This document shows, one piece after another, positions 1,996-51,075 of a stretch of DNA of 64,000 nt. The position numbers were made by a program, and so were the translations under genes. Numbering within the stretch: position 1 is the first letter of the stretch; every line of letters starts with the position of its first letter. The DNA is from Escherichia coli (GTDB lineage: Bacteria > Pseudomonadota > Gammaproteobacteria > Enterobacterales > Enterobacteriaceae): the NCBI RefSeq assembly GCF_046105845.1, contig NZ_CP151004.1. One strand, 5' to 3'. The notes below the pieces were generated by a model. It worked only from the letters and a program-made list of their open reading frames with translations, was not told where the DNA came from and ran no database searches.

Positions 1996-3345
1996 TTGGC
2001 GGGTTTTAACATCAAACATTGGTTTGCAGATGGCGCGTTTCGCACCATTATTCGCAATAGCGCCTGGTTAGGCTCCAGTAATGTCGTGAGCGCCTTGCTG
2101 GGTCTGTTGGCGCTCTCGTGTGCCGGTAAAGGGATGACGCCCGCCATGTTTGGCGTACTGGTGATTGTGCAATCGTACGCCAAGTCGATCAGCGATTTTA
2201 TTAAGTTTCAGACATGGCAGCTGGTGGTTCAGTACGGAACACCAGCATTAACCAACAATAATCCGCAGCAATTCCGCAATGTCGTCTCATTTTCCTTCTC
2301 GCTGGATATCGTCAGCGGCGCGGTGGCGATTGTCGGCGGCATTGCCTTACTCCCTTTTCTTTCCCATTCATTAGGTCTGGATGACCAAAGCTTTTGGCTG
2401 GCGGCGCTGTATTGCACGCTCATTCCTTCAATGGCTTCCTCCACGCCGACCGGCATTCTGCGTGCGGTAGATCGCTTCGATTTAATTGCTGTACAGCAGG
2501 CGACGAAACCTTTTCTGCGCGCAGCGGGGAGCGTCGTAGCCTGGTATTTTGACTTTGGTTTTGCGGGCTTTGTTATTGCCTGGTACGTGTCGAATCTGGT
2601 TGGCGGCACCATGTACTGGTGGTTTGCCGTGCGCGAATTACGCTGCAGAAATATCCATAACGCCTTCAAATTGAATCTGTTTGAGTCTGCCCGACACATT
2701 AAAGGCGCGTGGAGTTTTGTCTGGTCAACCAACATTGCCCACTCCATCTGGTCGGCACGTAACTCGTGCAGCACAGTGTTGGTGGGGATCGTGTTAGGAC
2801 CCGCTGCCGCCGGGTTATTTAAAATCGCCATGACATTCTTCGACGCCGCCGGAACGCCAGCGGGTTTACTGGGTAAAAGTTTTTACCCAGAGGTGATGCG
2901 TTTAGATCCGCGCACCACCAGACCGTGGTTGTTAGGCGTGAAGTCAGGTTTACTGGCGGGCGGAATCGGTATTCTGGTGGCGCTCGCGGTGTTGATCGTC
3001 GGCAAGCCGCTCATTTCGCTGGTGTTTGGCGTTAAGTATCTCGAAGCGTATGACCTGATTCAGGTGATGCTGGGCGCAATTGTGATTTCGATGCTGGGCT
3101 TCCCACAGGAGTCATTGCTATTGATGGCGGGAAAACAGCGTGCTTTTCTCGTGGCGCAAACCATCGCCTCAATCGGCTACATCGTATTGCTGTTCATGTT
3201 CTGTCATCTGTTTGGCGTGCTGGGGGCTGCATTTGCTTACTTCGCTGGGCAATGTCTGGATGTGGTGCTCTCGCTAATTCCAACCTTAAAGGCATTTTTT
3301 CAGCGCCATTCCTTGCTTTATAACGCAGCCGGAGAGAAATCCTGA
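1996..3345 (+). CDS. yghQ: Polytopic membrane protein, Wzx/MOP-type polysaccharide or lipid flippase-like (start uncertain, TTG at 1996)
   Basis: 449-aa ORF, highly hydrophobic with multiple predicted TM segments; position after yghR as in K-12 (recalled). Confidence 0.65.
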   Translation: MAGFNIKHWFADGAFRTIIRNSAWLGSSNVVSALLGLLALSCAGKGMTPAMFGVLVIVQSYAKSISDFIKFQTWQLVVQYGTPALTNNNPQQFRNVVSFSFSLDIVSGAVAIVGGIALLPFLSHSLGLDDQSFWLAALYCTLIPSMASSTPTGILRAVDRFDLIAVQQATKPFLRAAGSVVAWYFDFGFAGFVIAWYVSNLVGGTMYWWFAVRELRCRNIHNAFKLNLFESARHIKGAWSFVWSTNIAHSIWSARNSCSTVLVGIVLGPAAAGLFKIAMTFFDAAGTPAGLLGKSFYPEVMRLDPRTTRPWLLGVKSGLLAGGIGILVALAVLIVGKPLISLVFGVKYLEAYDLIQVMLGAIVISMLGFPQESLLLMAGKQRAFLVAQTIASIGYIVLLFMFCHLFGVLGAAFAYFAGQCLDVVLSLIPTLKAFFQRHSLLYNAAGEKS

Positions 3346-4169
3346 TGATGAGAAAATATTTCCCGCTTGAGGCTAGCGAGCGTCTATTTGTTGCGATTGA
3401 AGAAGATGATGTCGTTGATGCACAGGTCAGTTTGCCGCCGACTATCGCACTAAGTTGTACCACCGAAATCATCCATGATAATTACGCGTTATGCCTGAAA
3501 TTCTGGCTGGATGGTGTTAATCGTCAGGAGCTACTGCGTTTAATCCGCAAACAGGCGAAAGGCGATGAGCTGACGACAGACGAGCGCAAAAAGTATAAAT
3601 ACATGCGAGCGCGCTACAAGCACCTGCGTTTTGCGCAACGGCTGTATTTAAAGAAGCATCAGGCCGGATTTTTATTCGGCAAAACGACCGTTTTTTTGGG
3701 GCGTTTTCAGGACGGCTTTCGTAACGGTAAGAAAAATATTGTGTCGTATTACGGCAACCTGTTACGGGTTTATTTAAGCTCTTCGGTCTGGTCGTTGGTG
3801 AACTATTCATTACGCCATAGCCAGTTAGAAAGCGTAAGCGGTTTTATTGCCTATCGGCAAAAGCAAATGCATACCCTGAAAGAGATAATTGCCAAACCGC
3901 GACTAACTGGCAGGGAATTTCATGATGTGCGAAAAATCATCAGCCAGCAGGTTTCTTATTACGACACCCTAAGATCGCTTGATCCTGAAAATAAAGAGGC
4001 GTTACAGATTTCCCGCTTCCTCGCCGCCATTAATGGCCTGATGGGGGATAAACACGACGACATGGTGGCGGATGATATGGAAAACCGCCAGTCGTATGAT
4101 GCACCGGTGGCGCTGGATAGCGATATTCGCCAGCGCTTAGAGCTGCTGATTTCGCGTTTTCCGCTATAA
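3345..4169 (+). CDS. Hypothetical soluble protein (274 aa), basic, no recognisable motif
   Basis: ORF track; ATG overlaps yghQ stop (TGATG) suggesting translational coupling. Confidence 0.6.
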   Translation: MMRKYFPLEASERLFVAIEEDDVVDAQVSLPPTIALSCTTEIIHDNYALCLKFWLDGVNRQELLRLIRKQAKGDELTTDERKKYKYMRARYKHLRFAQRLYLKKHQAGFLFGKTTVFLGRFQDGFRNGKKNIVSYYGNLLRVYLSSSVWSLVNYSLRHSQLESVSGFIAYRQKQMHTLKEIIAKPRLTGREFHDVRKIISQQVSYYDTLRSLDPENKEALQISRFLAAINGLMGDKHDDMVADDMENRQSYDAPVALDSDIRQRLELLISRFPL

Positions 4170-4177
4170 CCGGAGCA

Positions 4178-4741
4178 ATGATGTCATCTCGTTTGATTAT
4201 TGCGCTGATTATCATGCTCTTAGCCCCGGGTGTGCAGGCACACAATTTCGTCACTGGCAAAACGGTTACCCCCGTTTATATCCAGGAAGGCGGTGAGTTG
4301 CTTCTGAATAGCGACGACGAAATTCACTACCAAAAGTGGAACAGCACACAGCTGGCGGGAAAAGTCCGCATTATTCAGTATATCGCCGGGCGTAAGTCGG
4401 CGAAGAAAAAGAACTCACTGTTAATTAAAGCGGTTGAAGCGGCAAACTTTCCGCAGGATCGTTTTCAGCCCACCACCATTGTGAACACCGATGATGCCAT
4501 CTTTGGTACTGGCTATTTTGTCGTTGGCAAAATCGAAAAAAATAAACGCCGCTATCCGTGGGCGCAATTCGTTATTGACGGCAATGGACTGGGACGCGTT
4601 GCCTGGCGGTTGCCGGAGCAGAGTTCAACCATTCTGGTGCTGAATAAAGACGGGCAAATTCAGTGGGCAAAGGACGGCAGCCTGACGCCGGAAGAGGTAG
4701 ATCATGTCATTGCGCTGGCGCAGAAACTGATCAATGAATAA
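4178..4741 (+). CDS. Secreted/periplasmic protein, YtfJ-like (187 aa)
   Basis: N-terminal signal peptide MMSSRLIIALIIMLLAPGVQA; overall similarity to the YtfJ periplasmic family as I recall it. Confidence 0.6.
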   Translation: MMSSRLIIALIIMLLAPGVQAHNFVTGKTVTPVYIQEGGELLLNSDDEIHYQKWNSTQLAGKVRIIQYIAGRKSAKKKNSLLIKAVEAANFPQDRFQPTTIVNTDDAIFGTGYFVVGKIEKNKRRYPWAQFVIDGNGLGRVAWRLPEQSSTILVLNKDGQIQWAKDGSLTPEEVDHVIALAQKLINE

Positions 4742-4771
4742 AAAATTCAAAGGATTGAGGGCGTTAGTGAG

Positions 4772-5842
4772 ATGAAGCTGGTTGAACACTACATCATGCG
4801 TGGTACGCGCCGTCTGGTGTTGATTATCGTCGGTTTTCTGATCTTTATTTTCGCCAGCTACTCCGCACAGCGTTATCTGGCCGAAGCGGCAAATGGGACA
4901 TTAGCTCTTGATGTTGTGCTGGATATCGTTTTCTACAAAGTGCTGATTGCACTGGAGATGCTGTTACCTGTTGGACTATATGCTTCAGTTGGCGTGACGC
5001 TAGGGCAAATGTATACCGACTCGGAAATTACCGCTATCTCCGCGGCGGGGGGCAGTCCGGGACGCTTGTACAAAGCCGTTCTTTATCTGGCGATACCGCT
5101 AAGTATTTTTGTCACCCTTCTGTCGATGTATGGTCGTCCGTGGGCTTATGCGCAGATTTATCAATTGGAGCAACAGTCACAGTCGGAGCTGGATGTTCGC
5201 CAGTTGCGGGCAAAGAAATTTAACACTAACGATAACGGACGAATGATCCTTTCGCAGACGGTTGATCAGGATAATAATCGCCTGACTGACGCGCTGATTT
5301 ATACTTCTACTGCCAATCGAACCCGCATTTTCCGCGCCCGTTCGGTTGATGTGGTTGACCCATCACCTGAGAAACCGACTGTTATGTTGCACAACGGCAC
5401 TGCCTATCTTCTCGATCATCAGGGGCGTGACGACAACGAACAGATCTACCGTAATCTGCAATTACATCTGAATCCGCTGGATCAAAGCCCTAACGTCAAA
5501 CGCAAAGCGAAATCGGTCACGGAGCTGGCGCGCTCCGTCTTTCCAGCCGATCATGCCGAACTGCAATGGCGACAAAGCCGTGGCCTGACAGCATTGTTGA
5601 TGGCGCTGCTGGCCATTTCATTAAGTCGGGTAAAACCGCGGCAAGGGCGATTTTCAACATTATTGCCACTGACGTTGCTGTTTATTGCCATTTTTTATGG
5701 CGGCGACGTCTGCCGTACGCTGGTGGCTAACGGCGCGATTCCCCTCATTCCTGGTTTGTGGTTAGTACCCGGACTCATGCTAATGGGCCTGCTGATGCTG
5801 GTCGCACGCGACTTCTCTTTGCTGCAGAAATTTTCCCGATGA
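4772..5842 (+). CDS. LptF-like permease (YjgP/YjgQ family) paralog
   Basis: 356-aa membrane protein; N-terminal TM block, central periplasmic domain, C-terminal TM block; conserved SEITAI motif as in LptF/LptG. Confidence 0.7.
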   Translation: MKLVEHYIMRGTRRLVLIIVGFLIFIFASYSAQRYLAEAANGTLALDVVLDIVFYKVLIALEMLLPVGLYASVGVTLGQMYTDSEITAISAAGGSPGRLYKAVLYLAIPLSIFVTLLSMYGRPWAYAQIYQLEQQSQSELDVRQLRAKKFNTNDNGRMILSQTVDQDNNRLTDALIYTSTANRTRIFRARSVDVVDPSPEKPTVMLHNGTAYLLDHQGRDDNEQIYRNLQLHLNPLDQSPNVKRKAKSVTELARSVFPADHAELQWRQSRGLTALLMALLAISLSRVKPRQGRFSTLLPLTLLFIAIFYGGDVCRTLVANGAIPLIPGLWLVPGLMLMGLLMLVARDFSLLQKFSR

Positions 5843-6918
5843 ATGTTTTCAGTCGCTATTTAATCCGTCATCTCTTTCTCGGTTTTGCCGCCGCCGCAGG
5901 ATTATTGCTGCCGCTTTTTACCACCTTCAACCTGATTAACGAACTGGATGATGTCAGCCCGGGCGGTTATCGCTGGACTCAGGCGGTGCTGGTGGTGCTG
6001 ATGACCTTACCGCGCACACTGGTCGAACTTTCGCCGTTTATCGCATTATTGGGAGGGATTGTTGGCCTGGGGCAGTTATCGAAAAACAGTGAGCTTACCG
6101 CTATTCGCAGCACTGGGTTTTCTATCTTCCGTATTGCACTGGTGGCGCTGGTTGCCGGGATATTGTGGACTGTTTCGTTAGGCGCGATAGATGAGTGGGT
6201 GGCGTCGCCATTGCAGCAACAGGCGCTGCAAATCAAATCGACTGCCACCGCGTTGGGGGAGGACGATGACATTACCGGCAATATGCTTTGGGCCAGGCGC
6301 GGTAATGAATTTGTGACGGTGAAATCGCTGAACGAGCAGGGCCAGCCTGTGGGCGTGGAGATATTTCATTATCGCGACGATCTCTCGCTCGAATCCTACA
6401 TTTTTGCACGCAGTGCCACCATTGAAGACGACAAAACGTGGATCCTGCATGGTGTGAATCATAAAAAATGGTTGAATGGCAAAGAAACGCTGGAAACATC
6501 AGATAATCTTGCCTGGCAATCGGCCTTCACCAGTATGGATCTTGAAGAGTTATCGATGCCGGGGAATACTTTTTCTGTCCGTCAGCTTAATCATTACATC
6601 CATTATTTGCAGGAAACCGGGCAACCCAGCAGCGATTACCGCCTTGCACTGTGGGAAAAACTGGGGCAACCCATCTTAACTCTGGCGATGATTTTGCTGG
6701 CTGTGCCGTTTACCTTTAGTGCCCCGCGTTCGCCTGGGATGGGTAGCCGTCTCGCTGTAGGCGTCATCGTGGGCTTACTCACCTGGATCAGCTATCAAAT
6801 CATGGTCAATCTGGGATTGCTATTTGCGTTGAGCGCACCTGTTACCGCGCTCGGTTTACCGATAGCGTTTGTGCTGGTGGCGTTGAGCCTGGTGTATTGG
6901 TATGACAGTCAACATTAA
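5839..6918 (+). CDS. LptG-like permease (YjgP/YjgQ family) paralog
   Basis: ATG at 5839 overlaps upstream stop (ATGA); MNVFSRYLIRH... with SELTAI motif; same topology as LptG. Confidence 0.7.
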   Translation: MNVFSRYLIRHLFLGFAAAAGLLLPLFTTFNLINELDDVSPGGYRWTQAVLVVLMTLPRTLVELSPFIALLGGIVGLGQLSKNSELTAIRSTGFSIFRIALVALVAGILWTVSLGAIDEWVASPLQQQALQIKSTATALGEDDDITGNMLWARRGNEFVTVKSLNEQGQPVGVEIFHYRDDLSLESYIFARSATIEDDKTWILHGVNHKKWLNGKETLETSDNLAWQSAFTSMDLEELSMPGNTFSVRQLNHYIHYLQETGQPSSDYRLALWEKLGQPILTLAMILLAVPFTFSAPRSPGMGSRLAVGVIVGLLTWISYQIMVNLGLLFALSAPVTALGLPIAFVLVALSLVYWYDSQH

Positions 6919-6952
6919 ACCCGCCGTGGCGCAGCACCACAGCGGGCTCACA

Positions 6953-8125
6953 TTACTGCTTCAGAGTAGCAAATGCCTGAATGATGGCATCGATTTGCTC
7001 ACGACTGTGGGCAGCGTTTACGCTACAGCGCAGCAGCGTGATGCCTGCAGGCGCGGCAGGTGGCAGGATAAGATTCACATAAACGCCCAGCGAAATAAGC
7101 TCGCGCCAGATGCGTAAACCTTCCTCTTTCGAACCGATTATTACTGGCACTACCGGGCTAATATGTGAACTTAACTCGTAACCCAGTTTTTGCAGACCGT
7201 CATACAGATGGTTGGCGTTATCCATCAGCTTTTGCCGCAGCTCTGGTTGTGAGGCAATGGTTCTTAACGACGAGCGCACGGTCGCAATGCAGGACGGAGA
7301 AGGAGAGGCGGTAAAAATATACGGGCGGCTGCCGTAGCGCAGCACTTCCATCGCTTCCGAACCGACAGCAAAACCGCCAATCGAGGCCAGACTTTTACTG
7401 AAAGTACCAACGATAATATCCACATCATCTTCAACGCCAACGGCTTCAGCCAGTCCGCGCCCCATTGCGCCTAACACGCCAAACGAATGCGCTTCATCGA
7501 CAATCAAATAACCACCGAGACGACGTTTGATATCAACAATTTCCGCTAACGGCGCAACGTCACCGAGCATGCTGTAGATACCCTCAACGATGATAATCGC
7601 CTCTTTCGCCCGTTCACCGAGGCGAACCATGCGCCGTTCCAGATCTTTAGCATCGTTATGGCGGAAACGAATAATTTCCGCGCCACCGAGAGAACAGGCG
7701 TCATAAATACTGGCGTGGCTGTCGGCATCCAGTAACACCACGGCGTTATGGTCGGCAAGTGCGCTGATGACGCCTAAATTAGCGGTATAACCGGTTGAAA
7801 AAACGATAGCGGTAGGGCGATTAAAAAACTCGGCGATCTCTTTCTCTAACGCCAGATGCGGCGCATAACTGCCGTTTGCCATACGAGAACCGGTGGTGCC
7901 GGTGCCTTGGGCCGCTAACGCTGCCTGACCTTCGGCGATGGCATCATGATTGAAGGTTAATCCGAGATAATTATTGGTCCCGGCCAGAATCACTTTTTTA
8001 TTGCCGATCCGACCTTCGGTGGCGGAATACACTTCATCAATACAGGTACCAAACGGCGTTAACCCGTTGTCACTAAATTGCAGTCGCTCGCCAGCAAGGC
8101 GCGCATATTTATCGTATAGCCCCAT
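6953..8125 (-). CDS. PLP-dependent alpha-oxoamine synthase (serine palmitoyltransferase / BioF / Kbl family), 390 aa
   Basis: Motifs NNYLGL, GTFSKSL (PLP-lysine), DEAHSFG; start ATG overlaps upstream ACP stop (TAATG). Confidence 0.8.
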   Translation of the reverse strand: MGLYDKYARLAGERLQFSDNGLTPFGTCIDEVYSATEGRIGNKKVILAGTNNYLGLTFNHDAIAEGQAALAAQGTGTTGSRMANGSYAPHLALEKEIAEFFNRPTAIVFSTGYTANLGVISALADHNAVVLLDADSHASIYDACSLGGAEIIRFRHNDAKDLERRMVRLGERAKEAIIIVEGIYSMLGDVAPLAEIVDIKRRLGGYLIVDEAHSFGVLGAMGRGLAEAVGVEDDVDIIVGTFSKSLASIGGFAVGSEAMEVLRYGSRPYIFTASPSPSCIATVRSSLRTIASQPELRQKLMDNANHLYDGLQKLGYELSSHISPVVPVIIGSKEEGLRIWRELISLGVYVNLILPPAAPAGITLLRCSVNAAHSREQIDAIIQAFATLKQ

Positions 8126-8373
8126 TATTTATTCTCCAGCCATGGAAGTAGTGTTTCCATTAATTGCGCAGGGGTTTTGACATCCAGCAGAATATTAATA
8201 GGAATGGAAATATCGAATCTGTCTTCCAGCATCATTAAGAGATCCATCACTTTGATCGACTCCAGGCCAAGATCGTTGACGAGATCGCTGTCGGGCTTAA
8301 TTTCCACACCGTTTTCGACCAAATCCTGTAAACAGGAAAGGATGTAATCCATTACTATTTCACGATTTACCAT
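8125..8373 (-). CDS. Acyl carrier protein (82 aa)
   Basis: DLGLESIKVMDL phosphopantetheine-attachment motif; small acidic protein. Confidence 0.8.
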   Translation of the reverse strand: MVNREIVMDYILSCLQDLVENGVEIKPDSDLVNDLGLESIKVMDLLMMLEDRFDISIPINILLDVKTPAQLMETLLPWLENK

Positions 8374-8404
8374 AGAAACGTTAACACACCTTTAAACAAG
8401 ACAA

Positions 8405-9319
8405 TCAAAATAGCCCGTTGCGTAATGCGTGTTCCAGGCTAATCCCGGGAAACCAATTAATATCTTCAGAAATACGGTTATTACTTGCCGACCAGTCGGC
8501 ATGAGTTAATTCACGGATTTTCGAACGAGTCAGCATCGGTTCTTTACCCGCCAGACGGCTCAACGCGGTACTGATATCCGCAAGGCAGGTGAGTAGCGAC
8601 AGAGGAATACCGACCATCCGCACGGAACCACAACGGGCGTCGGCGGCAAGCTGTCTTACGCGTTGCCAGTCATAGCCGCCGGCGACGCCATCGCATAATT
8701 CATAGGTTTGCGTCTGTACAGTTTCGGCGCTTAACCACTGCCCCACGGCTTGCGCGAAATCGGTGACGTGCAGGAAAGAGAGCTGTGTCTCTGGCGCACC
8801 AAGTCGTGGCAGCAGGCCGCGCAGCATCCAGTCAAACAGCGGTTTTAACTCTTTATCGCCGGGACCATACACGGCTGTCGGGCGAAAAACGCCCAGCGTA
8901 ATTTCATCAGCCATTGCAGTCAGCCGTTGTTCGGCGACGTGTTTGGAATTTGCGTACCAGGAGAGTTCGGGATGGCGCGCCGCCAGCGAAGAGATAAACA
9001 GAAAACGTTGGCAAAAGCCGCTCTCTTTTGCCGCTTGCATCAGTCGCAGGCTGCCGTCAACGTTACAGCGGGTAAAAATCTCTTCTTTGTGCCCGCGCAC
9101 TTGCCCGGCGCAATGGACCACCGCGCTGGCTCCGGCAACCAGTTCGCTAAGTGAATGAGTATCTTCCAGAGAACCGCGCACCCAGATGAGATTGTCATTG
9201 ACGTGAGCGCGGGCAGTACGCGTCAATGTGCGAACGTGAAAGCCGCGGGCGAGCAGGTTATCGATAATATATTTACCGATAAACCCGGTAGCGCCCGTCA
9301 CCGCGACAGTTTGATTCAT
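8405..9319 (-). CDS. NAD(P)-dependent epimerase/dehydratase-family reductase (SDR fold), ~304 aa
   Basis: Rossmann motif VAVTGATGFIGKYII just after ATG at 9319; ATG overlaps upstream stop (ATGA); longer ORF-track start at 9529 rejected. Confidence 0.7.
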   Translation of the reverse strand: MNQTVAVTGATGFIGKYIIDNLLARGFHVRTLTRTARAHVNDNLIWVRGSLEDTHSLSELVAGASAVVHCAGQVRGHKEEIFTRCNVDGSLRLMQAAKESGFCQRFLFISSLAARHPELSWYANSKHVAEQRLTAMADEITLGVFRPTAVYGPGDKELKPLFDWMLRGLLPRLGAPETQLSFLHVTDFAQAVGQWLSAETVQTQTYELCDGVAGGYDWQRVRQLAADARCGSVRMVGIPLSLLTCLADISTALSRLAGKEPMLTRSKIRELTHADWSASNNRISEDINWFPGISLEHALRNGLF

Positions 9320-11037
9320 GCCAGGGATTCCTGCACATGAAGGCTTGCAGCATAAGCCTTCTGATAACGTTTTTTCGCTTCCGCACGGGCAGGCTTGCCG
9401 GAGGACGTTCGGGGAATACTGTGGGGCGGCAACAGATCGATAGCCGCTGTTACGCCAAATTCGCTTTGGATCCGTGCTACCAGCGCGTGGATAAGCTGCC
9501 CACGACGTTCTTCGTCGCTGATCCGACACTGGATCTGCAAAATGATTTTTTCCTGGGCGGTAACAAAAGCAATCGCATCGCCAGAATGAATTTCCGGTTC
9601 CTGTTCCGCAATATATTCAATATCCTGCGGCCAGATATTACGGCCACGAATAATAATCAGATCTTTAATGCGCCCGGTGACATACAGATAACCGTCCAGC
9701 AGATAACCGAGGTCGCCGGTGTCTAACCAGCCCGTCGCGGCAATCTCGTCTTGTGAAATCTGGTCGCCAAAGTAACCGCTCATCAGGCTAGGGCCGGAGA
9801 TGCAAATATGGCCTACCACACGTTCCGCGGCAGGTATACCTGCTTCATTGCGGATTTCAATGCCATGTTCTGGCAACGCTTTACCGCAGTTGACGAAAGT
9901 CGATACGGCGCGTGTTTCAGCACCCGGCGCGACGGCTTTGCCCTGATATTCAAGGATGTCGCGATCCACTTCGTTAACCACAACCCCGGAGGCTTCATCA
10001 GAGAAGCTGACAGCCAGCGCATTTTCTGCCAGTCCGTAGCACGGCATGAACGTTTTATCGTCAAAGTTAACCTGACGGAAACATTCAGCGAATTGATGGA
10101 GTTGTTCTGCGGAGATCGGCTCAGCACCAATACCAGCGACGCGCCAGCAGGATAGATCCAGTTCAGCGAGATCTTTTTCATTCACGCGGCGCTGGCACAA
10201 TTCATAGCCAAACGGCGGCGCAACGGAAACGGTGCCGCGATTTTTACTGATCAATTTAAGCCATTGCAGAGGACGCATGGCAAAATCCTGAGTGCGCAAA
10301 TAATCTACTGAGAGCTGCGTGGCGACGGGGGTCAGGAGAAAGCCGACCAGTCCCATATCATGGTAGAAAGGCAGCCAGGAGACGCAGCGGTCGCCAGGGC
10401 GTAATTTAATGCCATCGTGGCTTATAGCACGTAGATTAGCCATCACTTCGCGATGGGTGATAATGACGCCACGGGGAAAACGGGTGCTGCCGGAGGTGTA
10501 CTGGAGGTAGGCGATATCGTTCGGAACTGGATGCTGGAGTGCAACATCGGCTTCCGGTAATGCCTTAAACCAGGCGTGGCTTAAAACATGTAATTCGGGG
10601 TTGTTATGCGTAGCGGCATTGACCAGTGGCAACCACTCATCACCAGTGATAATGGCTGCGGGCTGGCAACTTGTCAGTAAACCCTGCAGTTTGGCGCTCC
10701 AGGAATCCCGCTGACCGACGCCCATTGGAATCGCCAACGGGACGGCGACTAAGCCGGCATACTGGCAGGAAAAAAAAGCCTCTACGAACCCGCTACTGGT
10801 TTCGGCAATCAGCGCCACGCGATCGCCTTTTTTCAGGTTCAGCGATAACAACCGCTTCGCACCAGCTTCGGCACGCGCTTTTAACGTCTGATATTCCAGT
10901 TGATCTTCAAGTTGGCAACGTCTGTCATAAAAATTCATTCCGGCGCTACTCAGAGCGGCGTAGTCCAAAGCATCAACCAGCGTTGGAAAATCGGCATAGC
11001 GCATAGGTAGGGAATGCGTAAAGATTTTATTAGACAT
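9316..11037 (-). CDS. Fatty acyl-AMP ligase / acyl-ACP synthetase (AMP-binding superfamily), ~573 aa
   Basis: AMP-binding signature YTSGSTRFPRGV; N-terminus MSNKIFTHSLPMRYADF typical of FAAL-type enzymes; ATG at 11037. Confidence 0.75.
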   Translation of the reverse strand: MSNKIFTHSLPMRYADFPTLVDALDYAALSSAGMNFYDRRCQLEDQLEYQTLKARAEAGAKRLLSLNLKKGDRVALIAETSSGFVEAFFSCQYAGLVAVPLAIPMGVGQRDSWSAKLQGLLTSCQPAAIITGDEWLPLVNAATHNNPELHVLSHAWFKALPEADVALQHPVPNDIAYLQYTSGSTRFPRGVIITHREVMANLRAISHDGIKLRPGDRCVSWLPFYHDMGLVGFLLTPVATQLSVDYLRTQDFAMRPLQWLKLISKNRGTVSVAPPFGYELCQRRVNEKDLAELDLSCWRVAGIGAEPISAEQLHQFAECFRQVNFDDKTFMPCYGLAENALAVSFSDEASGVVVNEVDRDILEYQGKAVAPGAETRAVSTFVNCGKALPEHGIEIRNEAGIPAAERVVGHICISGPSLMSGYFGDQISQDEIAATGWLDTGDLGYLLDGYLYVTGRIKDLIIIRGRNIWPQDIEYIAEQEPEIHSGDAIAFVTAQEKIILQIQCRISDEERRGQLIHALVARIQSEFGVTAAIDLLPPHSIPRTSSGKPARAEAKKRYQKAYAASLHVQESLA

Positions 11038-11408
11038 ATACACCACGAAAAAATTGGATATCAAAAATAAAATGACAATAATGCGGTGGATTATATAGGC
11101 ATAAAAGATAAATGAGATAGTATTTTCATCAGTGTGAAAATGAACATTGATTTAAATAATGAGTTTGAGTTTTTTTGTTTTTATTGTGAATGATATTTAA
11201 TTTATGAATATATTAAGAATAAGCCTTGTCCGGTCGCCTTAAATCGACAAAAGGCATTGTGGCGCTTCTGTGTAGTCTCTAACCTTATCGTAATCATTAA
11301 TAAATACTATTTATTCGTCGTTTGTATTCATTGGGTTGATTATTAAGGTGCCGTTCGTTGCTGTTGCAACCTGTTTGTCACCGTTAATTATTTGTTACCC
11401 ACAGAACT
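11038..11408. promoter_or_regulatory. AT-rich divergent intergenic region between the FAAL operon and yghO (promoters inferred, not mapped)
   Basis: 371 bp with long A/T runs between divergently oriented start codons. Confidence 0.4.
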
Positions 11409-12551
11409 ATGGAATGCGATCTGCTGATGATTAAAATTGAAAAAGTAATTAATAAAAATGACCTTAAGGCATTTATCGCTTTTCCGTCATCACTTTATCC
11501 CGACGATCCAAACTGGATACCCCCTTTATTCATTGAACGCAACGAGCATTTGTCTGCGAAAAATCCGGGGACGGACCATATCATCTGGCAGGCGTGGGTG
11601 GCAAAAAAAGCGGGGCAGATAGTTGGGCGTATTACCGTGCAAATAGATACCTTGCACCGCGAGCGTTACGGTGAAGATACCGGTCATTTCGGCATGATTG
11701 ACGCCATTGATGATCCGCAGGTTTTTGCCGCGTTGTTTGGCGCAGCGGAAGCGTGGTTGAAGTCACAAGGTGCAAGTAAGATCAGCGGTCCTTTCAGCCT
11801 GAATATCAATCAGGAAAGCGGATTACTGATTGAAGGTTTCGATACACCACCCTGTGCGATGATGCCGCACGGTAAACCGTGGTATGCCGCGCATATTGAA
11901 CAATTGGGTTATCACAAAGGCATTGATTTACTAGCGTGGTGGATGCAGCGAACCGATCTCACTTTCTCTCCGGCGCTAAAAAAACTGATGGATCAGGTGC
12001 GTAAGAAGGTGACCATTCGCTGCATCAATCGCCAGCGGTTTGCCGAAGAGATGCAGATCCTGCGTGAGATTTTCAACTCTGGCTGGCAGCACAACTGGGG
12101 ATTTGTGCCGTTTACCGAACATGAATTCGCGACTATGGGCGATCAACTTAAATATCTGGTGCCGGACGATATGATCTACATCGCTGAGATTGATTCTGCA
12201 CCCTGCGCGTTTATTGTTGGCTTGCCAAACATCAACGAGGCGATTGCCGATCTGAACGGATCGCTCTTTCCCTTCGGCTGGGCAAAATTGCTGTGGCGTT
12301 TAAAAGTCAGCGGTGTGCGTACTGCGCGAGTACCGCTGATGGGCGTGCGGGACGAGTATCAGTTTAGCCGCATCGGCCCGGTGATTGCGCTGTTATTGAT
12401 TGAAGCCTTACGCGATCCGTTTGCCCGCCGGAAGATCGATGCGCTGGAAATGTCATGGATCCTCGAAACCAATACAGGCATGAATAACATGCTGGAACGC
12501 ATTGGGGCAGAGCCGTACAAGCGTTACCGATTGTATGAAAAGCAGATTTGA
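11409..12551 (+). CDS. yghO: YghO-like protein (380 aa), candidate acyltransferase; function unverified
   Basis: ORF track; position between lipid operon and glcC as for K-12 yghO (recalled); no motif I can assign confidently. Confidence 0.6.
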   Translation: MECDLLMIKIEKVINKNDLKAFIAFPSSLYPDDPNWIPPLFIERNEHLSAKNPGTDHIIWQAWVAKKAGQIVGRITVQIDTLHRERYGEDTGHFGMIDAIDDPQVFAALFGAAEAWLKSQGASKISGPFSLNINQESGLLIEGFDTPPCAMMPHGKPWYAAHIEQLGYHKGIDLLAWWMQRTDLTFSPALKKLMDQVRKKVTIRCINRQRFAEEMQILREIFNSGWQHNWGFVPFTEHEFATMGDQLKYLVPDDMIYIAEIDSAPCAFIVGLPNINEAIADLNGSLFPFGWAKLLWRLKVSGVRTARVPLMGVRDEYQFSRIGPVIALLLIEALRDPFARRKIDALEMSWILETNTGMNNMLERIGAEPYKRYRLYEKQI

Positions 12552-12557
12552 TGGCAG

Positions 12558-13322
12558 TCACCCCTGCTTCATCTCCAGCGGCACCGCCGAGCGAATCAAA
12601 TGGTGGCCTTCCAGCTCGATATCGTGGAGATTCTTTTTCACGGTCCGCACATGATCGCGTGCTGCGCGCTGGGCGACGTGCGGCAGCCGCTGCAACACCG
12701 CGTTGTAGATCCGCGCATGCTGGCGATCGATCTGCTTTTTTTGCTGTGGTCGATGGTAGAGATTATTTACGCTGGCAAACACTGAATTAAACATCAGATC
12801 GGTCAATGATTGCAGCGTAAACACCAACACCTGATTGTGAGAAGCCTGACAAATGGCGAGATGGAAAGCGTGATCCAACTGCGCATGTTCGATCAGCGAA
12901 ATCTCTTTGTTGTTCTCACTGGCGGCGAGCATTTTTTCATAACAGCGGGTTATCACAACAAAATCAGCCTGGGTTCCCAGCGTTGCCGCAAGCCTTGCCG
13001 ATTCCCCCTCCAGCAATGCGCGAACGTCGAGCAGATCGTACAGCGTTCGCGGCTGCGTGCTGAACAGATGAATTAGCGGGCTGGTATCCTGCACCCGATT
13101 AAGCCGTGCGACACGAGAATCGCGACCCTGCGCTGTTTCAATAATCCCGCGCCCGCGCAGCACGGTCAGCCCTTCACGCAGTGCGGAGCGTGAGAAGCCG
13201 AGCTTTTCACACAGTCGACGTTCCGAGGGAAGCGGCTGACCGACCTTCAGTACGCCGTCGATAATTAACCGTTCGATACTCTCTGCAACCACTTCGCAAA
13301 TAGGGCGACGTTCATCTTTCAT
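12558..13322 (-). CDS. glcC: GntR-family transcriptional activator of the glc operon
   Basis: MKDERRPICEVVAESIERLIIDGVLKVGQPLPSERRL... matches GlcC; start at internal ATG 13322 (254 aa). Confidence 0.9.
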   Translation of the reverse strand: MKDERRPICEVVAESIERLIIDGVLKVGQPLPSERRLCEKLGFSRSALREGLTVLRGRGIIETAQGRDSRVARLNRVQDTSPLIHLFSTQPRTLYDLLDVRALLEGESARLAATLGTQADFVVITRCYEKMLAASENNKEISLIEHAQLDHAFHLAICQASHNQVLVFTLQSLTDLMFNSVFASVNNLYHRPQQKKQIDRQHARIYNAVLQRLPHVAQRAARDHVRTVKKNLHDIELEGHHLIRSAVPLEMKQG

Positions 13323-13572
13323 TCCCGGACCTCGTGCACAGGTAGGACCAATTTTTCTGTTCTTAACTCGCAAAACACGCACATCACGTAAGTGATTATG
13401 TTACATCAATTTAACATTAAGTTAACCAAGGCAAGGTCACAGAGCTGGAAAAAAAATGGTCTGACCGGTAGCTAAAGAGATAGACGAAAACGAAAAGCCC
13501 GCTTAATAACTGTTCACAGAAGCAGCGCGCAAAAATCAGCTGCCACACAACACAACAAAGCGAAGCCTACTC
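13323..13572. promoter_or_regulatory. glcC–glcD divergent control region
   Basis: Intergenic between divergent glcC and glcD; regulatory role known for this operon, sites not mapped here. Confidence 0.45.
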
Positions 13573-15072
13573 ATGAGCATCTTGTACGAAGAGCGTCTTG
13601 ATGGCGCTTTACCCGATGTCGACCGCACATCGGTACTGATGGCACTGCGTGAGCATGTCCCTGGACTTGAGATCCTGCATACCGATGAGGAGATCATTCC
13701 TTACGAGTGTGACGGGTTGAGCGCGTATCGCACGCGTCCATTACTGGTTGTTCTGCCTAAGCAAATGGAACAGGTGACAGCGATTCTGGCTGTTTGTCAC
13801 CGCCTGCGTGTATCGGTGGTGACCCGTGGTGCAGGCACCGGGCTTTCTGGTGGCGCGCTGCCGCTGGAAAAAGGTGTGTTGTTGGTGATGGCGCGCTTTA
13901 AAGAGATCCTCGACATTAACCCCGTTGGTCGCCGCGCGCGCGTGCAGCCGGGCGTGCGTAACCTGGCGATCTCCCAGGCCGTTGCGCCGCATAATCTCTA
14001 TTACGCGCCGGATCCTTCCTCACAAATCGCCTGTTCAATTGGCGGCAATGTGGCGGAAAATGCCGGTGGCGTCCACTGCCTGAAATATGGTCTGACCGTA
14101 CATAACTTGCTGAAAATTGAAGTGCAAACGCTGGACGGCGAGGCGCTGACGCTGGGATCGGACGCGCTGGATTCGCCTGGTTTTGACCTGCTGGCGCTGT
14201 TCACCGGATCGGAAGGTATGCTCGGCGTGACCACCGAAGTAACGGTGAAGCTGTTGCCGAAGCCGCCCGTGGCGCGGGTTCTGTTAGCCAGCTTTGACTC
14301 GGTAGAAAAAGCCGGACTTGCAGTTGGTGACATCATCGCCAATGGCATTATCCCCGGCGGGCTGGAGATGATGGATAACCTGTCGATCCGCGCAGCGGAA
14401 GATTTTATACATGCCGGTTATCCCGTCGACGCCGAAGCGATTTTGTTATGCGAGCTGGACGGCGTGGAGTCTGACGTACAGGAAGACTGCGAGCGGGTTA
14501 ACGACATCTTGTTGAAAGCGGGCGCGACTGACGTCCGTCTGGCACAGGACGAAGCAGAGCGCGTACGTTTCTGGGCCGGTCGCAAAAATGCGTTCCCTGC
14601 GGTAGGACGAATCTCCCCGGATTACTACTGCATGGATGGCACCATCCCGCGCCGCGCACTGCCTGGCGTACTGGAAGGCATTGCCCGTTTATCGCAGCAA
14701 TATGATTTACGCGTTGCCAACGTCTTTCATGCCGGAGACGGCAACATGCACCCGTTAATCCTTTTCGATGCCAACGAACCCGGTGAATTTGCCCGCGCGG
14801 AAGAGCTGGGCGGGAAGATCCTCGAACTCTGCGTTGAAGTTGGCGGCAGCATCAGTGGGGAACATGGCATCGGGCGCGAAAAAATCAATCAAATGTGCGC
14901 CCAGTTCAACAGCGATGAAATCACTACTTTTCATGCGGTCAAGGCGGCGTTTGATCCCGATGGTTTGTTGAACCCAGGAAAAAACATTCCCACGCTACAC
15001 CGCTGTGCTGAATTTGGTGCCATGCATGTGCATCACGGTCATTTACCTTTCCCTGAACTGGAGCGTTTCTGA
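13573..15072 (+). CDS. glcD: Glycolate oxidase subunit GlcD (FAD-binding)
   Basis: 499-aa ORF; FAD-binding oxidase family; operon context. Confidence 0.95.
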   Translation: MSILYEERLDGALPDVDRTSVLMALREHVPGLEILHTDEEIIPYECDGLSAYRTRPLLVVLPKQMEQVTAILAVCHRLRVSVVTRGAGTGLSGGALPLEKGVLLVMARFKEILDINPVGRRARVQPGVRNLAISQAVAPHNLYYAPDPSSQIACSIGGNVAENAGGVHCLKYGLTVHNLLKIEVQTLDGEALTLGSDALDSPGFDLLALFTGSEGMLGVTTEVTVKLLPKPPVARVLLASFDSVEKAGLAVGDIIANGIIPGGLEMMDNLSIRAAEDFIHAGYPVDAEAILLCELDGVESDVQEDCERVNDILLKAGATDVRLAQDEAERVRFWAGRKNAFPAVGRISPDYYCMDGTIPRRALPGVLEGIARLSQQYDLRVANVFHAGDGNMHPLILFDANEPGEFARAEELGGKILELCVEVGGSISGEHGIGREKINQMCAQFNSDEITTFHAVKAAFDPDGLLNPGKNIPTLHRCAEFGAMHVHHGHLPFPELERF

Positions 15073-42510: not shown

Positions 42511-42550
42511 AAAAAAAAGGGTCACCTTCTGGCGACCCGTTTTTCTTTGC
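42511..42550. terminator. Bidirectional intrinsic terminator between convergent speC and nupG
   Basis: aaaaaaaa gggtcacc ttct ggcgaccc gtttttcttt. Confidence 0.6.
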
Positions 42551-44012: not shown

Positions 44013-45119
<1,107 letters not shown>

Positions 45120-45156
45120 TTATGCAAGTTGCCGGAGGCGTGCTCCGGCACTGTTT

Positions 45157-45435
<279 letters not shown>

Positions 45436-45459
45436 TCATCCTCTTTATCGACTCACGCG

Positions 45460-46512
45460 CTAAACCGGCGCGCCAGTGCGTAACTGCTGTAACAAACGCT
45501 CCACGGGAGCCGCCAGGCCAACTGACGGCGGTTGCGCTAAGTTATACCAGAGCGCATTGCCTTCATCCATGCAGCCGGTGAATGACGACACGGGAAGCCA
45601 CATAGGCACAATATCTAAGTGGAAATGGCTGAAGGTATGCCGAAACGCGGTCAGCTGCGTCAGGTTATCGGCAGAAATCTGTCGTTGCGCCAGCCACTGC
45701 CGCAAACTTTCTTCATCGGCAAACTGCGGGAAACAGTATAAACCGCCCCACAATCCGCTCGGCGGACGCTGCGCCAGCAATACTTCATCTTCGTGCTGTA
45801 ACAGCAAAAAGTAGCCGGTGCGCTCTGGCAGCGTCTGTTTCGGTTTTTTGCCCGGATAAAGCGACCAGCTATTGTTGGCGGCGGCAATACATCCGTTTTG
45901 TAGCGGACAGAGCGAACATTTCGGCTTAGAGCGCGTACAAATCATCGCGCCCAAATCCATCATCGCCTGATTAAACCGTTCCACGCCAACCGCGGGCGTC
46001 ACCTGCTCGCTCAAACTCCATAGTTTATTCTCGACCTCTTTTTTCCCAGGCCAGCCGCTTACAGCATAGCAGCGCGCCAGCACCCGTTTGACGTTACCGT
46101 CGAGAATCGGAAAGTGCTTACCCAGAGAAAGCGAGAGAATCGCGCCTGCGGTGGAACGCCCGACGCCCGGTAACGCCGCGACTTCTTCAAAGGTTTCCGG
46201 GAATTTACCGCCGTGTAAGGTCGCCACTTGTTGTGCCGCTTTATGCAGATTGCGCGCGCGGGCGTAATAGCCAAGCCCGGTCCACAAGTGGAGAACTTCG
46301 TCCAGCGGCGCATTGGCGAGATCGGTCACCGTTGGGAAGCGCGCCATAAAGCGTTCAAAATAGGGGATAACGGTCGCAACCTGAGTTTGTTGCAACATCA
46401 CTTCTGAGAGCCATACTTTGTAGGGCGTCTTGTCAATTTGCCAGGGCAGCGTTTTCCGCCCGTATTTATCGTACCAGTCCAGAGCCTGGGCTGAAAATTG
46501 CGACGCTTGCAT
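45460..46512 (-). CDS. mutY: Adenine DNA glycosylase MutY
   Basis: MQASQFSAQ...; HhH-GPD and 4Fe-4S Cys motifs; 350 aa. Confidence 0.93.
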
Positions 46513-46672
46513 GGTCACCGAATTCACTGTTGTTGGGGGCAAGATTGCAGCACAGCGACGGCAGGGTGTAAACCGGAACTTTCCGCAGCCACGGCCTTAT
46601 CATGCTTGCATCCGGCAACTAACTTTGGATAATGCCCGTTTTCAGAACACTTTCACAAGCGACTAAATCTTT

Positions 46673-47718: not shown

Positions 47719-47764
47719 GAAAGCATACGGGCGATGACAAAGTTAAAAAAAGCGCTCGGATAGT

Positions 47765-47867
47765 CCCCTCGCCCCTCCGGGGAGAGGGTTAGGGTGAGGG
47801 GAACAGACCAGCACTGGCGCGATTATTTACCCTCACCCCGACCCTCTCCCTAAAAGGGCGAGGGGGA
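47765..47867. repeat. GC-rich imperfect palindrome (~100 bp): two inverted ~37-nt units separated by ~28 nt
   Basis: cccctcgcccctccggggagagggttagggtgagggg ... ccctcaccccgaccctctccctaaaagggcgaggggg; arms are reverse complements. Confidence 0.5.
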
Positions 47868-51020: not shown

Positions 51021-51038
51021 CTCATGTTAAGTGCCTTT

Positions 51039-51075
51039 GCCGGATAATATAAAAAGTTATCCGGCAAATTATTTT
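51039..51075. terminator. Bidirectional terminator between yggM and the TRAP permease gene
   Basis: gccggataa tataaaaag ttatccggc flanked by A/T runs. Confidence 0.6.

Follow-up and report, generated by a model that had tools for sequence, protein, structure and literature searches.

Gene arrangement at the yghO/glcC junction

The yghO gene occupies positions 11409 to 12551 on the plus strand of the window (the whole 64,000-nucleotide stretch of Escherichia coli DNA that was analysed) and converges on glcC, which occupies positions 12558 to 13322 on the minus strand. The yghO reading frame, identified also from the RefSeq annotation of homologous loci, encodes 380 amino acids ending in RYRLYEKQI, with a TGA stop codon at 12549-12551. 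The glcC reading frame, which carries the same name in the RefSeq annotation, encodes a GlcC protein of 254 amino acids ending in PLEMKQG, and its TGA stop codon (TCA on the plus strand) lies at 12558-12560. The list of open reading frames and the sequence itself place only six base pairs, TGGCAG (12552-12557), between the two stop codons. Within 12540-12575, the plus strand reads AAG CAG ATT TGA on the yghO side of this spacer and TCA CCC CTG CTT CAT on the glcC side. The coding regions thus do not form a pair of tail-to-tail overlapping genes, because their stops are 6 bp apart. A domain search found GntR and FCD domains in GlcC, as expected; the protein is the regulator of the glc operon.

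A megablast search with a junction segment of about 2.7 kb matched 4552 of the 5426 complete E. coli genomes, and the matched genomes are annotated with a fatty acyl-AMP ligase, yghO, glcC and glcD. The same 6-bp gap separates the RefSeq coding-sequence ends in strain EC-1639 (7552 and 7559) and in a K-12-like genome (5103 and 5110). The coordinates, gene names and 6-bp spacing given in the initial annotation therefore agree with the reading frames, with the annotation of the megablast matches and with RefSeq.

Each gene is preceded by a divergent control region. The region shared by aasR, the minus-strand gene for the fatty acyl-AMP ligase, and yghO (11005 to 11408) is AT-rich, and the GC content over 11001-12000 is 0.41. 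The region shared by glcC and glcD extends from 13323 to 13572. The window holds seven convergent pairs of reading frames, with gaps of 34, 6, 328, 45, -24, 55 and 114 bp, so that the yghO/glcC gap is the smallest positive one. Short gaps between convergent genes are common, and 6 bp is unremarkable by itself. The abutting ends of yghO and glcC are an ordinary arrangement that has been catalogued before.

The dihydroceramide cluster and its edge gene

The yghO gene lies at the edge of a dihydroceramide cluster, aasR-epi-acpR-spt. It is monocistronic and divergent from the aasR-epi-acpR-spt operon, and it is the only gene of the cluster that faces glcC. The names aasR, epi, acpR and spt are those used by Padilla-Gomez et al. 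2022 (PMC9386255), and the legend to Fig. 9 of that paper gives yghO (ECD_02850) as "aca", a homolog of the Caulobacter N-acyltransferase CC_1154. We adopt the aca assignment because it is so named there; a search of YghO against Pfam and NCBIfam HMMs returned no match. Other members of the cluster are recognized by NCBIfam models, with an spt equivalog at 596 bits (cutoff, 500), a fatty acyl-AMP ligase (FAAL) subfamily at 869 bits (cutoff, 600) and weak matches to the ACP and epimerase families, the epimerase-family protein being the reductase. All five genes expected of a dihydroceramide cluster (spt, acpR, aasR, epi and aca) are thus co-located. Their order is that of ECD_02850-02854 in BL21. 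Compared with the rhodobacterial-type cluster of E. coli B/BL21, which has the same genes in the same order, the one in the window is extended upstream by LptF/LptG paralogs, a YtfJ-family protein and a MOP-flippase-like, full-length YghQ. The junction with glcC is not discussed in PMC9386255.

Distribution across genera

Relatives of YghO were found at 45 loci in Shimwellia, Citrobacter, Serratia, Erwinia, Pantoea, Pseudomonas and other genera, in a scan that took one genome per species and inspected neighbours within 6 kb. Nearly all of these loci retain FAAL and yghO as a divergent pair, and glcC adjoins yghO only in Escherichia. In approximately 40 non-Escherichia loci from Enterobacterales and Pseudomonas, glcC is absent from the 6 kb around the FAAL-yghO pair. 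Conservation of the gene-pair arrangement across related species, which would be expected if it were functional, was thus not found.

The homology between genera ends at the yghO stop codon. Outside Escherichia, glcC relatives have different neighbours. The nearest non-Escherichia GlcC (87% identity) is followed by a 118-bp spacer with a 9-bp GC hairpin (z -2.4), and a Pseudomonas-type GlcC (74% identity) is followed by a spacer of 516 bp. Because the adjacency is restricted to Escherichia and homology stops at the yghO stop codon, the abutment appears to be the point at which the cluster's edge directly meets the end of glcC. This contact most likely arose by chance as the genomes of the Escherichia lineage were put together.

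Signals that might end yghO transcripts in other genera are heterogeneous, and a hairpin with a T tract within 30 nucleotides of the stop codon (<=30 nt) occurs in few loci. With so few such loci, no ancestral terminator can be inferred.

Junction alleles and the origin of the short spacer

The junction itself is hypervariable. A 20-bp segment (12549 to 12568), defined by alignment, takes in the spacer with the stop codon on either side of it and the final three codons of glcC. The two main alleles are mismatched at 9 of these 20 positions, against 1-2% of positions in the flanks (22 of 1049 in yghO and 10 of 732 in glcC). The allele found in the window, TGA-TGGCAG-TCA with the GlcC tail EMKQG, is present in 1356 genomes. 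The K-12-type allele, TAA-TACCAG-CTA with the tail EMNLS or EMNQS, is present in 2947. The two are equal in length, and the 6-bp gap is present in about 4355 of 4542 genomes, which could reflect selection rather than simple inheritance. In one strain whose flanks are 5-8% divergent, the window-type junction is unchanged.

A GC-rich repeat of about 70 bp is inserted precisely where the spacer borders the glcC stop codon in Escherichia sp. E1V33, in E. whittamii and in 10 E. coli genomes, among them CX12. With the insertion, the gap measures 76-77 bp and the GlcC tail is EMNKEGM, EMNKVGM or EMK; these, with EMKQG, EMNLS and EMNQS, complete the set of tail variants. The core of the insert is a dispersed repeat, which may be boxC-like; other copies follow adk and occupy about 47764-47810 of the window. 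An Rfam search with the insert gave only a sub-threshold chance match. The insert folds at the level of shuffled sequences and has no U tract. The variability of the junction, together with the tolerated insertion, argues against a finely tuned regulatory junction.

It is possible, although we are doubtful, that the ancestral Escherichia spacer was longer and that imprecise deletions produced the two 6-bp alleles. On this view, the ancestral spacer would have resembled either that of E1V33, E. whittamii and CX12, with the GC-rich repeat, or that of the 87%-identical relative, with a terminator for glcC. The insertion alleles do join a K-12-like left flank (TAA TACCAG) to a window-like right flank (TCAC...), and the 45% divergence of the 20-bp segment is incongruent with the divergence of the flanks. 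The occurrence of the inserted element elsewhere, as a dispersed repeat, also suits this origin. However, independent imprecise deletions would not be expected to yield alleles of identical length. Only 10 of about 4540 genomes bear the insert, E. whittamii has a degenerate copy of it, and there is no outgroup with yghO beside glcC by which the change could be polarised.

Searches for terminators and RNA structures

The initial annotation reported no terminator between the genes, and every search of the junction supports this. A terminator consensus scan of 11000-14000 returned two terminator-like sites (2.9 expected), neither of them downstream of either stop codon, and no such site for several hundred bases beyond the yghO or glcC stop. 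An inverted-repeat search of 12450-12660 found none, and an Rfam search of the junction (E<=1) gave no match. Predicted folds of the junction, computed for both strands, are at the level of shuffled sequences, both for RNAs of 261 and 271 nucleotides (z -1.06 and -0.30) and for RNAs of 56 nucleotides (z +0.35 and -1.02). The combination expected of an intrinsic or bidirectional terminator, namely an intergenic GC-rich stem with a loop of 3-8 nucleotides, a U tract and an upstream A tract, is not found here. The spacer lacks a terminator because 6 bp is too short to hold one.

Other convergent gaps in the window are different. Three of them contain a strong hairpin followed by a T-tract (42519-42538, 51036-51068 and 39056-39084), whereas the yghO/glcC gap has no space for such an element. 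Bidirectional intrinsic terminators between convergent genes were reportedly described by Ju, Li and Liu in Nature Microbiology in 2019. The window pairs at 42519-42538 and 51036-51068 resemble this type. The yghO/glcC junction shares with it the short convergent spacer, but has neither a hairpin nor A/U tracts in the gap.

Two weaker motifs lie in the opposing coding regions. On the plus strand, a fold predicts a hairpin at 12705 to 12742, with a 7-bp stem (12705-12711 and 12729-12735), a 17-nucleotide loop and a run of seven T residues (12736-12742). This element lies about 190 nucleotides beyond the yghO stop codon; its predicted energy is -12.8 kcal/mol (z +0.33). It is the sole intrinsic-terminator-like signal for yghO read-through, and it was not among the sites returned by the consensus scan. 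On the minus strand, a hairpin that spans the junction, AUGAAGCAG...CUGCUUUUCAU (12535 to 12572; -14.5 kcal/mol, z -1.0), was considered as a terminator for glcC and rejected. It is gone in the K-12-type allele (-7.2 kcal/mol, z +1.0), and because about two thirds of genomes carry that allele, the hairpin is not a conserved signal.

These two motifs could in principle act as cryptic intrinsic terminators, each within the coding sequence of the facing gene, with 12705-12742 serving yghO and the hairpin ending in CUGCUUUUCAU serving glcC. Both are present in the window sequence, and TransTermHP "overlapping terminators" are listed for 146 of the 165 convergent excludons of E. coli MG1655, with no pair-by-pair result for glcC-yghO (PMC12288877). 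We nevertheless regard this explanation as unlikely. Both motifs fail the consensus scan, neither folds better than shuffled sequence, and both have loops of 17-18 nucleotides. The T run is accounted for as the antisense of glcC codons for Q-K-K, and the allele that destroys the glcC-side hairpin is carried by about 65% of genomes.

Two further candidates at the junction were dismissed. A promoter-like match on the minus strand (12557 to 12530) agrees at 9 of 12 positions, and four such matches occur where 3.4 are expected. Read-through of the yghO TGA codon would enter an open frame of 78 codons; the K-12-type allele has TAA at this position, and open antisense frames are common.

Composition of the RNA beyond the stop codons

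Rho-dependent termination is said to have been described by Peters et al. in 2009 and 2012, with Rho and NusG suppressing antisense transcription. The RNA that would follow the glcC stop codon has features in common with Rho-dependent sites in that it is untranslated, antisense to a gene, C-rich and G-poor. In the 78 nucleotides right after the stop (12480 to 12557, minus strand), a candidate Rho loading (rut) region by composition, there are 23 C and 13 G residues, a C/G ratio of 1.77 that falls in the top 4-6% of 78-nucleotide windows across the whole window. A second C-rich stretch of glcC-sense RNA lies inside yghO (12272 to 12414, minus strand; C/G 1.5-1.93). An untranslated, C-rich and G-poor stretch of approximately 70-80 nucleotides or more past the stop, as expected of a rut-type site, is therefore found on the glcC-sense strand. 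For glcC transcripts that enter yghO, this composition clearly favours Rho, on which their termination probably depends.

The RNA after the yghO stop codon, which is antisense to the 3' end of glcC, is only mildly C-rich. Over 12552 to 12655 (plus strand), the C/G ratio is 1.05-1.24, in the top 25-35% of windows, and it drops below 1 further on. Termination by Rho is correspondingly less assured for yghO transcripts that enter glcC, and their read-through may extend further.

Overlap of the transcripts

A translatable mRNA must extend more than 6 nucleotides past its stop codon to accommodate the ribosome footprint. With a gap of 6 bp, each transcript therefore enters the opposing gene as antisense. 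The initial annotation had claimed that transcription of each gene must read into the other, and both this geometry and published RNA-seq data from MG1655 bear the claim out. The glcC-yghO pair is among the 165 convergent excludons reported for that strain with ExcludonFinder (Sanmartin et al., NAR 2025, PMC12288877), where it is named once, in Table 1 only, and at least 50% of the 58 RNA-seq samples show its two transcription units overlapping. Antisense read-through between yghO and glcC is thus real and was published earlier.

The junction resembles other convergent excludons in that neighbouring convergent genes have transcripts that overlap at their 3' ends. It differs in that a 6-bp gap makes the listing nearly automatic, and in that the K-12 yghO gene is not intact. 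In K-12, IS5 stands in place of the yghO 5' end and promoter, so the MG1655 overlap call may not carry over to strains in which the cluster is intact. In addition, ExcludonFinder scores a gene as extended when 3' coverage beyond the coding sequence exceeds 50% of the gene mean (PMC12288877). Any expressed convergent pair 6 bp apart would meet this threshold almost automatically, and the listing is silent on function.

The other RNA data sets searched have no entry for either gene, and they gave no sign of reciprocal expression or of dsRNA from the pair. Neither gene appears in the p19 dsRNA supplementary tables, a method that is poor at convergent 3' UTR duplexes and, according to the ExcludonFinder authors, recovers very few of them (PMC12288877). 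Both are also absent from the Adams 2021 and SMRT-Cappable-seq tables. Data sets of these kinds perform poorly at the 3' ends of convergent genes with low expression. A literature search on glcC antisense RNA or Rho returned only eukaryotic papers on GlcCer and GLCCI1.

One explanation would assign the overlap a function as a convergent excludon. RNA polymerase collision, RNase III cleavage of the 3' duplex, or both would then cause reciprocal interference, and ceramide N-acylation and glycolate regulation would be expressed in a mutually exclusive manner. The overlap is unavoidable, the pair belongs to the MG1655 "excludome" (PMC12288877), and the great majority of E. coli genomes keep the 6-bp gap. 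However, passing the ExcludonFinder threshold is expected of any two expressed convergent genes at this spacing, and the adjacency occurs in one genus, whereas the cluster occurs in many. The junction also varies and accommodates an insertion, the searchable dsRNA and 3'-end data sets, weak as they are for such ends, do not contain the pair, and glycolate sensing and ceramide synthesis have no obvious physiological link. We therefore consider a functional excludon quite improbable.

The coupling proposed in the initial annotation, between the lipid locus and glycolate metabolism, has no support, since yghO alone faces glcC, the adjacency is peculiar to Escherichia and the junction is hypervariable. 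Ceramide synthesis is unlikely to be coupled in its regulation to glycolate metabolism, and it would be more surprising still if, upon a rise in GlcC synthesis, read-through from glcC lowered expression of the N-acyltransferase gene yghO, or the reverse, in an Escherichia-specific link between glycolate/glyoxylate metabolism and the production of outer-membrane sphingolipids. If such a link existed, natural variation in the 20-bp junction, and the repeat insertion with it, would adjust its strength or remove it.

A probable passive boundary between two loci

The explanation that we favour, and consider probable, is that the junction is a passive island boundary at which Rho-type termination takes place inside the opposing gene, and that the overlap is a by-product rather than an evolved link. 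A horizontally distributed dihydroceramide cluster would, in Escherichia, meet the 3' end of glcC through its edge gene yghO. The 3' tail of each yghO mRNA is antisense to the end of glcC, and that of each glcC mRNA to the end of yghO. As the ribosome leaves each message at its stop codon, the RNA beyond would be naked and could become a substrate for Rho, which would probably stop the polymerase no more than a few hundred nucleotides into the opposing gene. Transcripts of yghO may run on, or may stop at the weak hairpin and U7 tract within glcC. An overlap of this kind fits the definition of a convergent excludon that is used operationally for RNA-seq data.

Under the passive-boundary explanation, the predicted length of the overlap and the predicted dependence on Rho both derive from RNA composition only. 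The overlap is most likely a tolerated by-product of the joining of two loci, with both genes weakly expressed.

Implications

The comparison between genera places the right-hand boundary of the ceramide cluster no more than 6 bp from the yghO stop codon. The junction also illustrates a general and documented fact, namely that many convergent bacterial genes have no terminator between them and overlap as RNA. Deletion or over-expression of glcC or yghO may consequently have polar antisense effects on the neighbouring gene, a caveat that applies to work on glycolate utilisation and on the sphingolipid genes of E. coli B. Strains in which the repeat insertion has widened the gap to 76 bp provide a natural control.

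Variation at the yghO/glcC junction

The convergent genes yghO (plus strand, 11409-12551) and glcC (minus strand, 12558-13322) are separated by 6 bp, and their junction is a localized hot spot of divergence. When the window allele is compared with the K-12 allele, which is of equal length, 9 of the 20 positions within 12549-12568 differ, against 1-2% in the flanking genes. The window type occurs in 1356 genomes and the K-12 type in 2947, and the window-type junction is also found unchanged in a strain whose flanks diverge by 5-8%. The hot spot may reflect scars of repeat insertion and excision, recombination, or relaxed constraint on the tail of GlcC.

A GC-rich dispersed repeat of ~70 bp, whose core is GCGCACGGACAGTCCCCTCGCCCCTCGGGGAGAGGGTTAGGGTGAGGGG, is inserted precisely within the spacer between the two genes in 10 E. 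coli genomes as well as in E. whittamii and Escherichia sp. E1V33. Copies lie at 7144-7219, 7144-7220 and 1526-1595 in the comparison loci L003, L005 and L049, respectively (each in its own coordinates). Further copies are found at ~47.8 kb in the window (about 47764-47810) and, in K-12-like genomes, 3' of adk. The repeat corresponds to no family in Rfam; it may resemble 'boxC' repeats.

The adjoining dihydroceramide cluster

yghO is the edge gene of a complete dihydroceramide cluster of the E. coli B type (window 1996-12551), most of which is missing from K-12, where the remainder lies beside an IS5. The cluster comprises full-length yghQ (MOP-flippase-like), a 274-aa ORF without family matches, a YtfJ-family gene, LptF and LptG paralogs, spt, acpR, epi, aasR, and yghO. 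The position of the LptF/G paralogs beside sphingolipid genes suggests a dedicated lipid exporter. The YghO protein (11409-12548), assigned in the literature as a homologue of acyl-CoA N-acyltransferase/ceramide synthase, matched no Pfam-A or NCBIfam model at thresholds of E<=0.01 and E<=1e-5.

Within the cluster, the lptG paralog and spt form the other convergent junction; the sole hairpin in their 34-bp gap (6919-6952), on the minus strand at 6922-6936, is weak, with 5 bp. Elsewhere in the window, greedy ORF calling yields convergent ORFs at 45031-45483 (plus strand, the shorter of the two and a putative gene) and 45460-46542 (minus strand) that overlap by 24 bp (45460-45483).

Distribution and origin

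The yghO-glcC-glcD' segment (window 11000-13700) has no megablast match whatever in 874 of 5426 complete E. coli genomes, from which it seems that a sizeable minority of the species lacks both yghO and glcC. Beyond Escherichia and Shigella, the nearest homologues of GlcC (12561-13322) are one metagenomic sequence (87%), followed by Pseudomonas and Stutzerimonas proteins (69-76%). No intermediate enterobacterial orthologues rank within the top 120 hits, a hint of horizontal acquisition of the glc locus itself.
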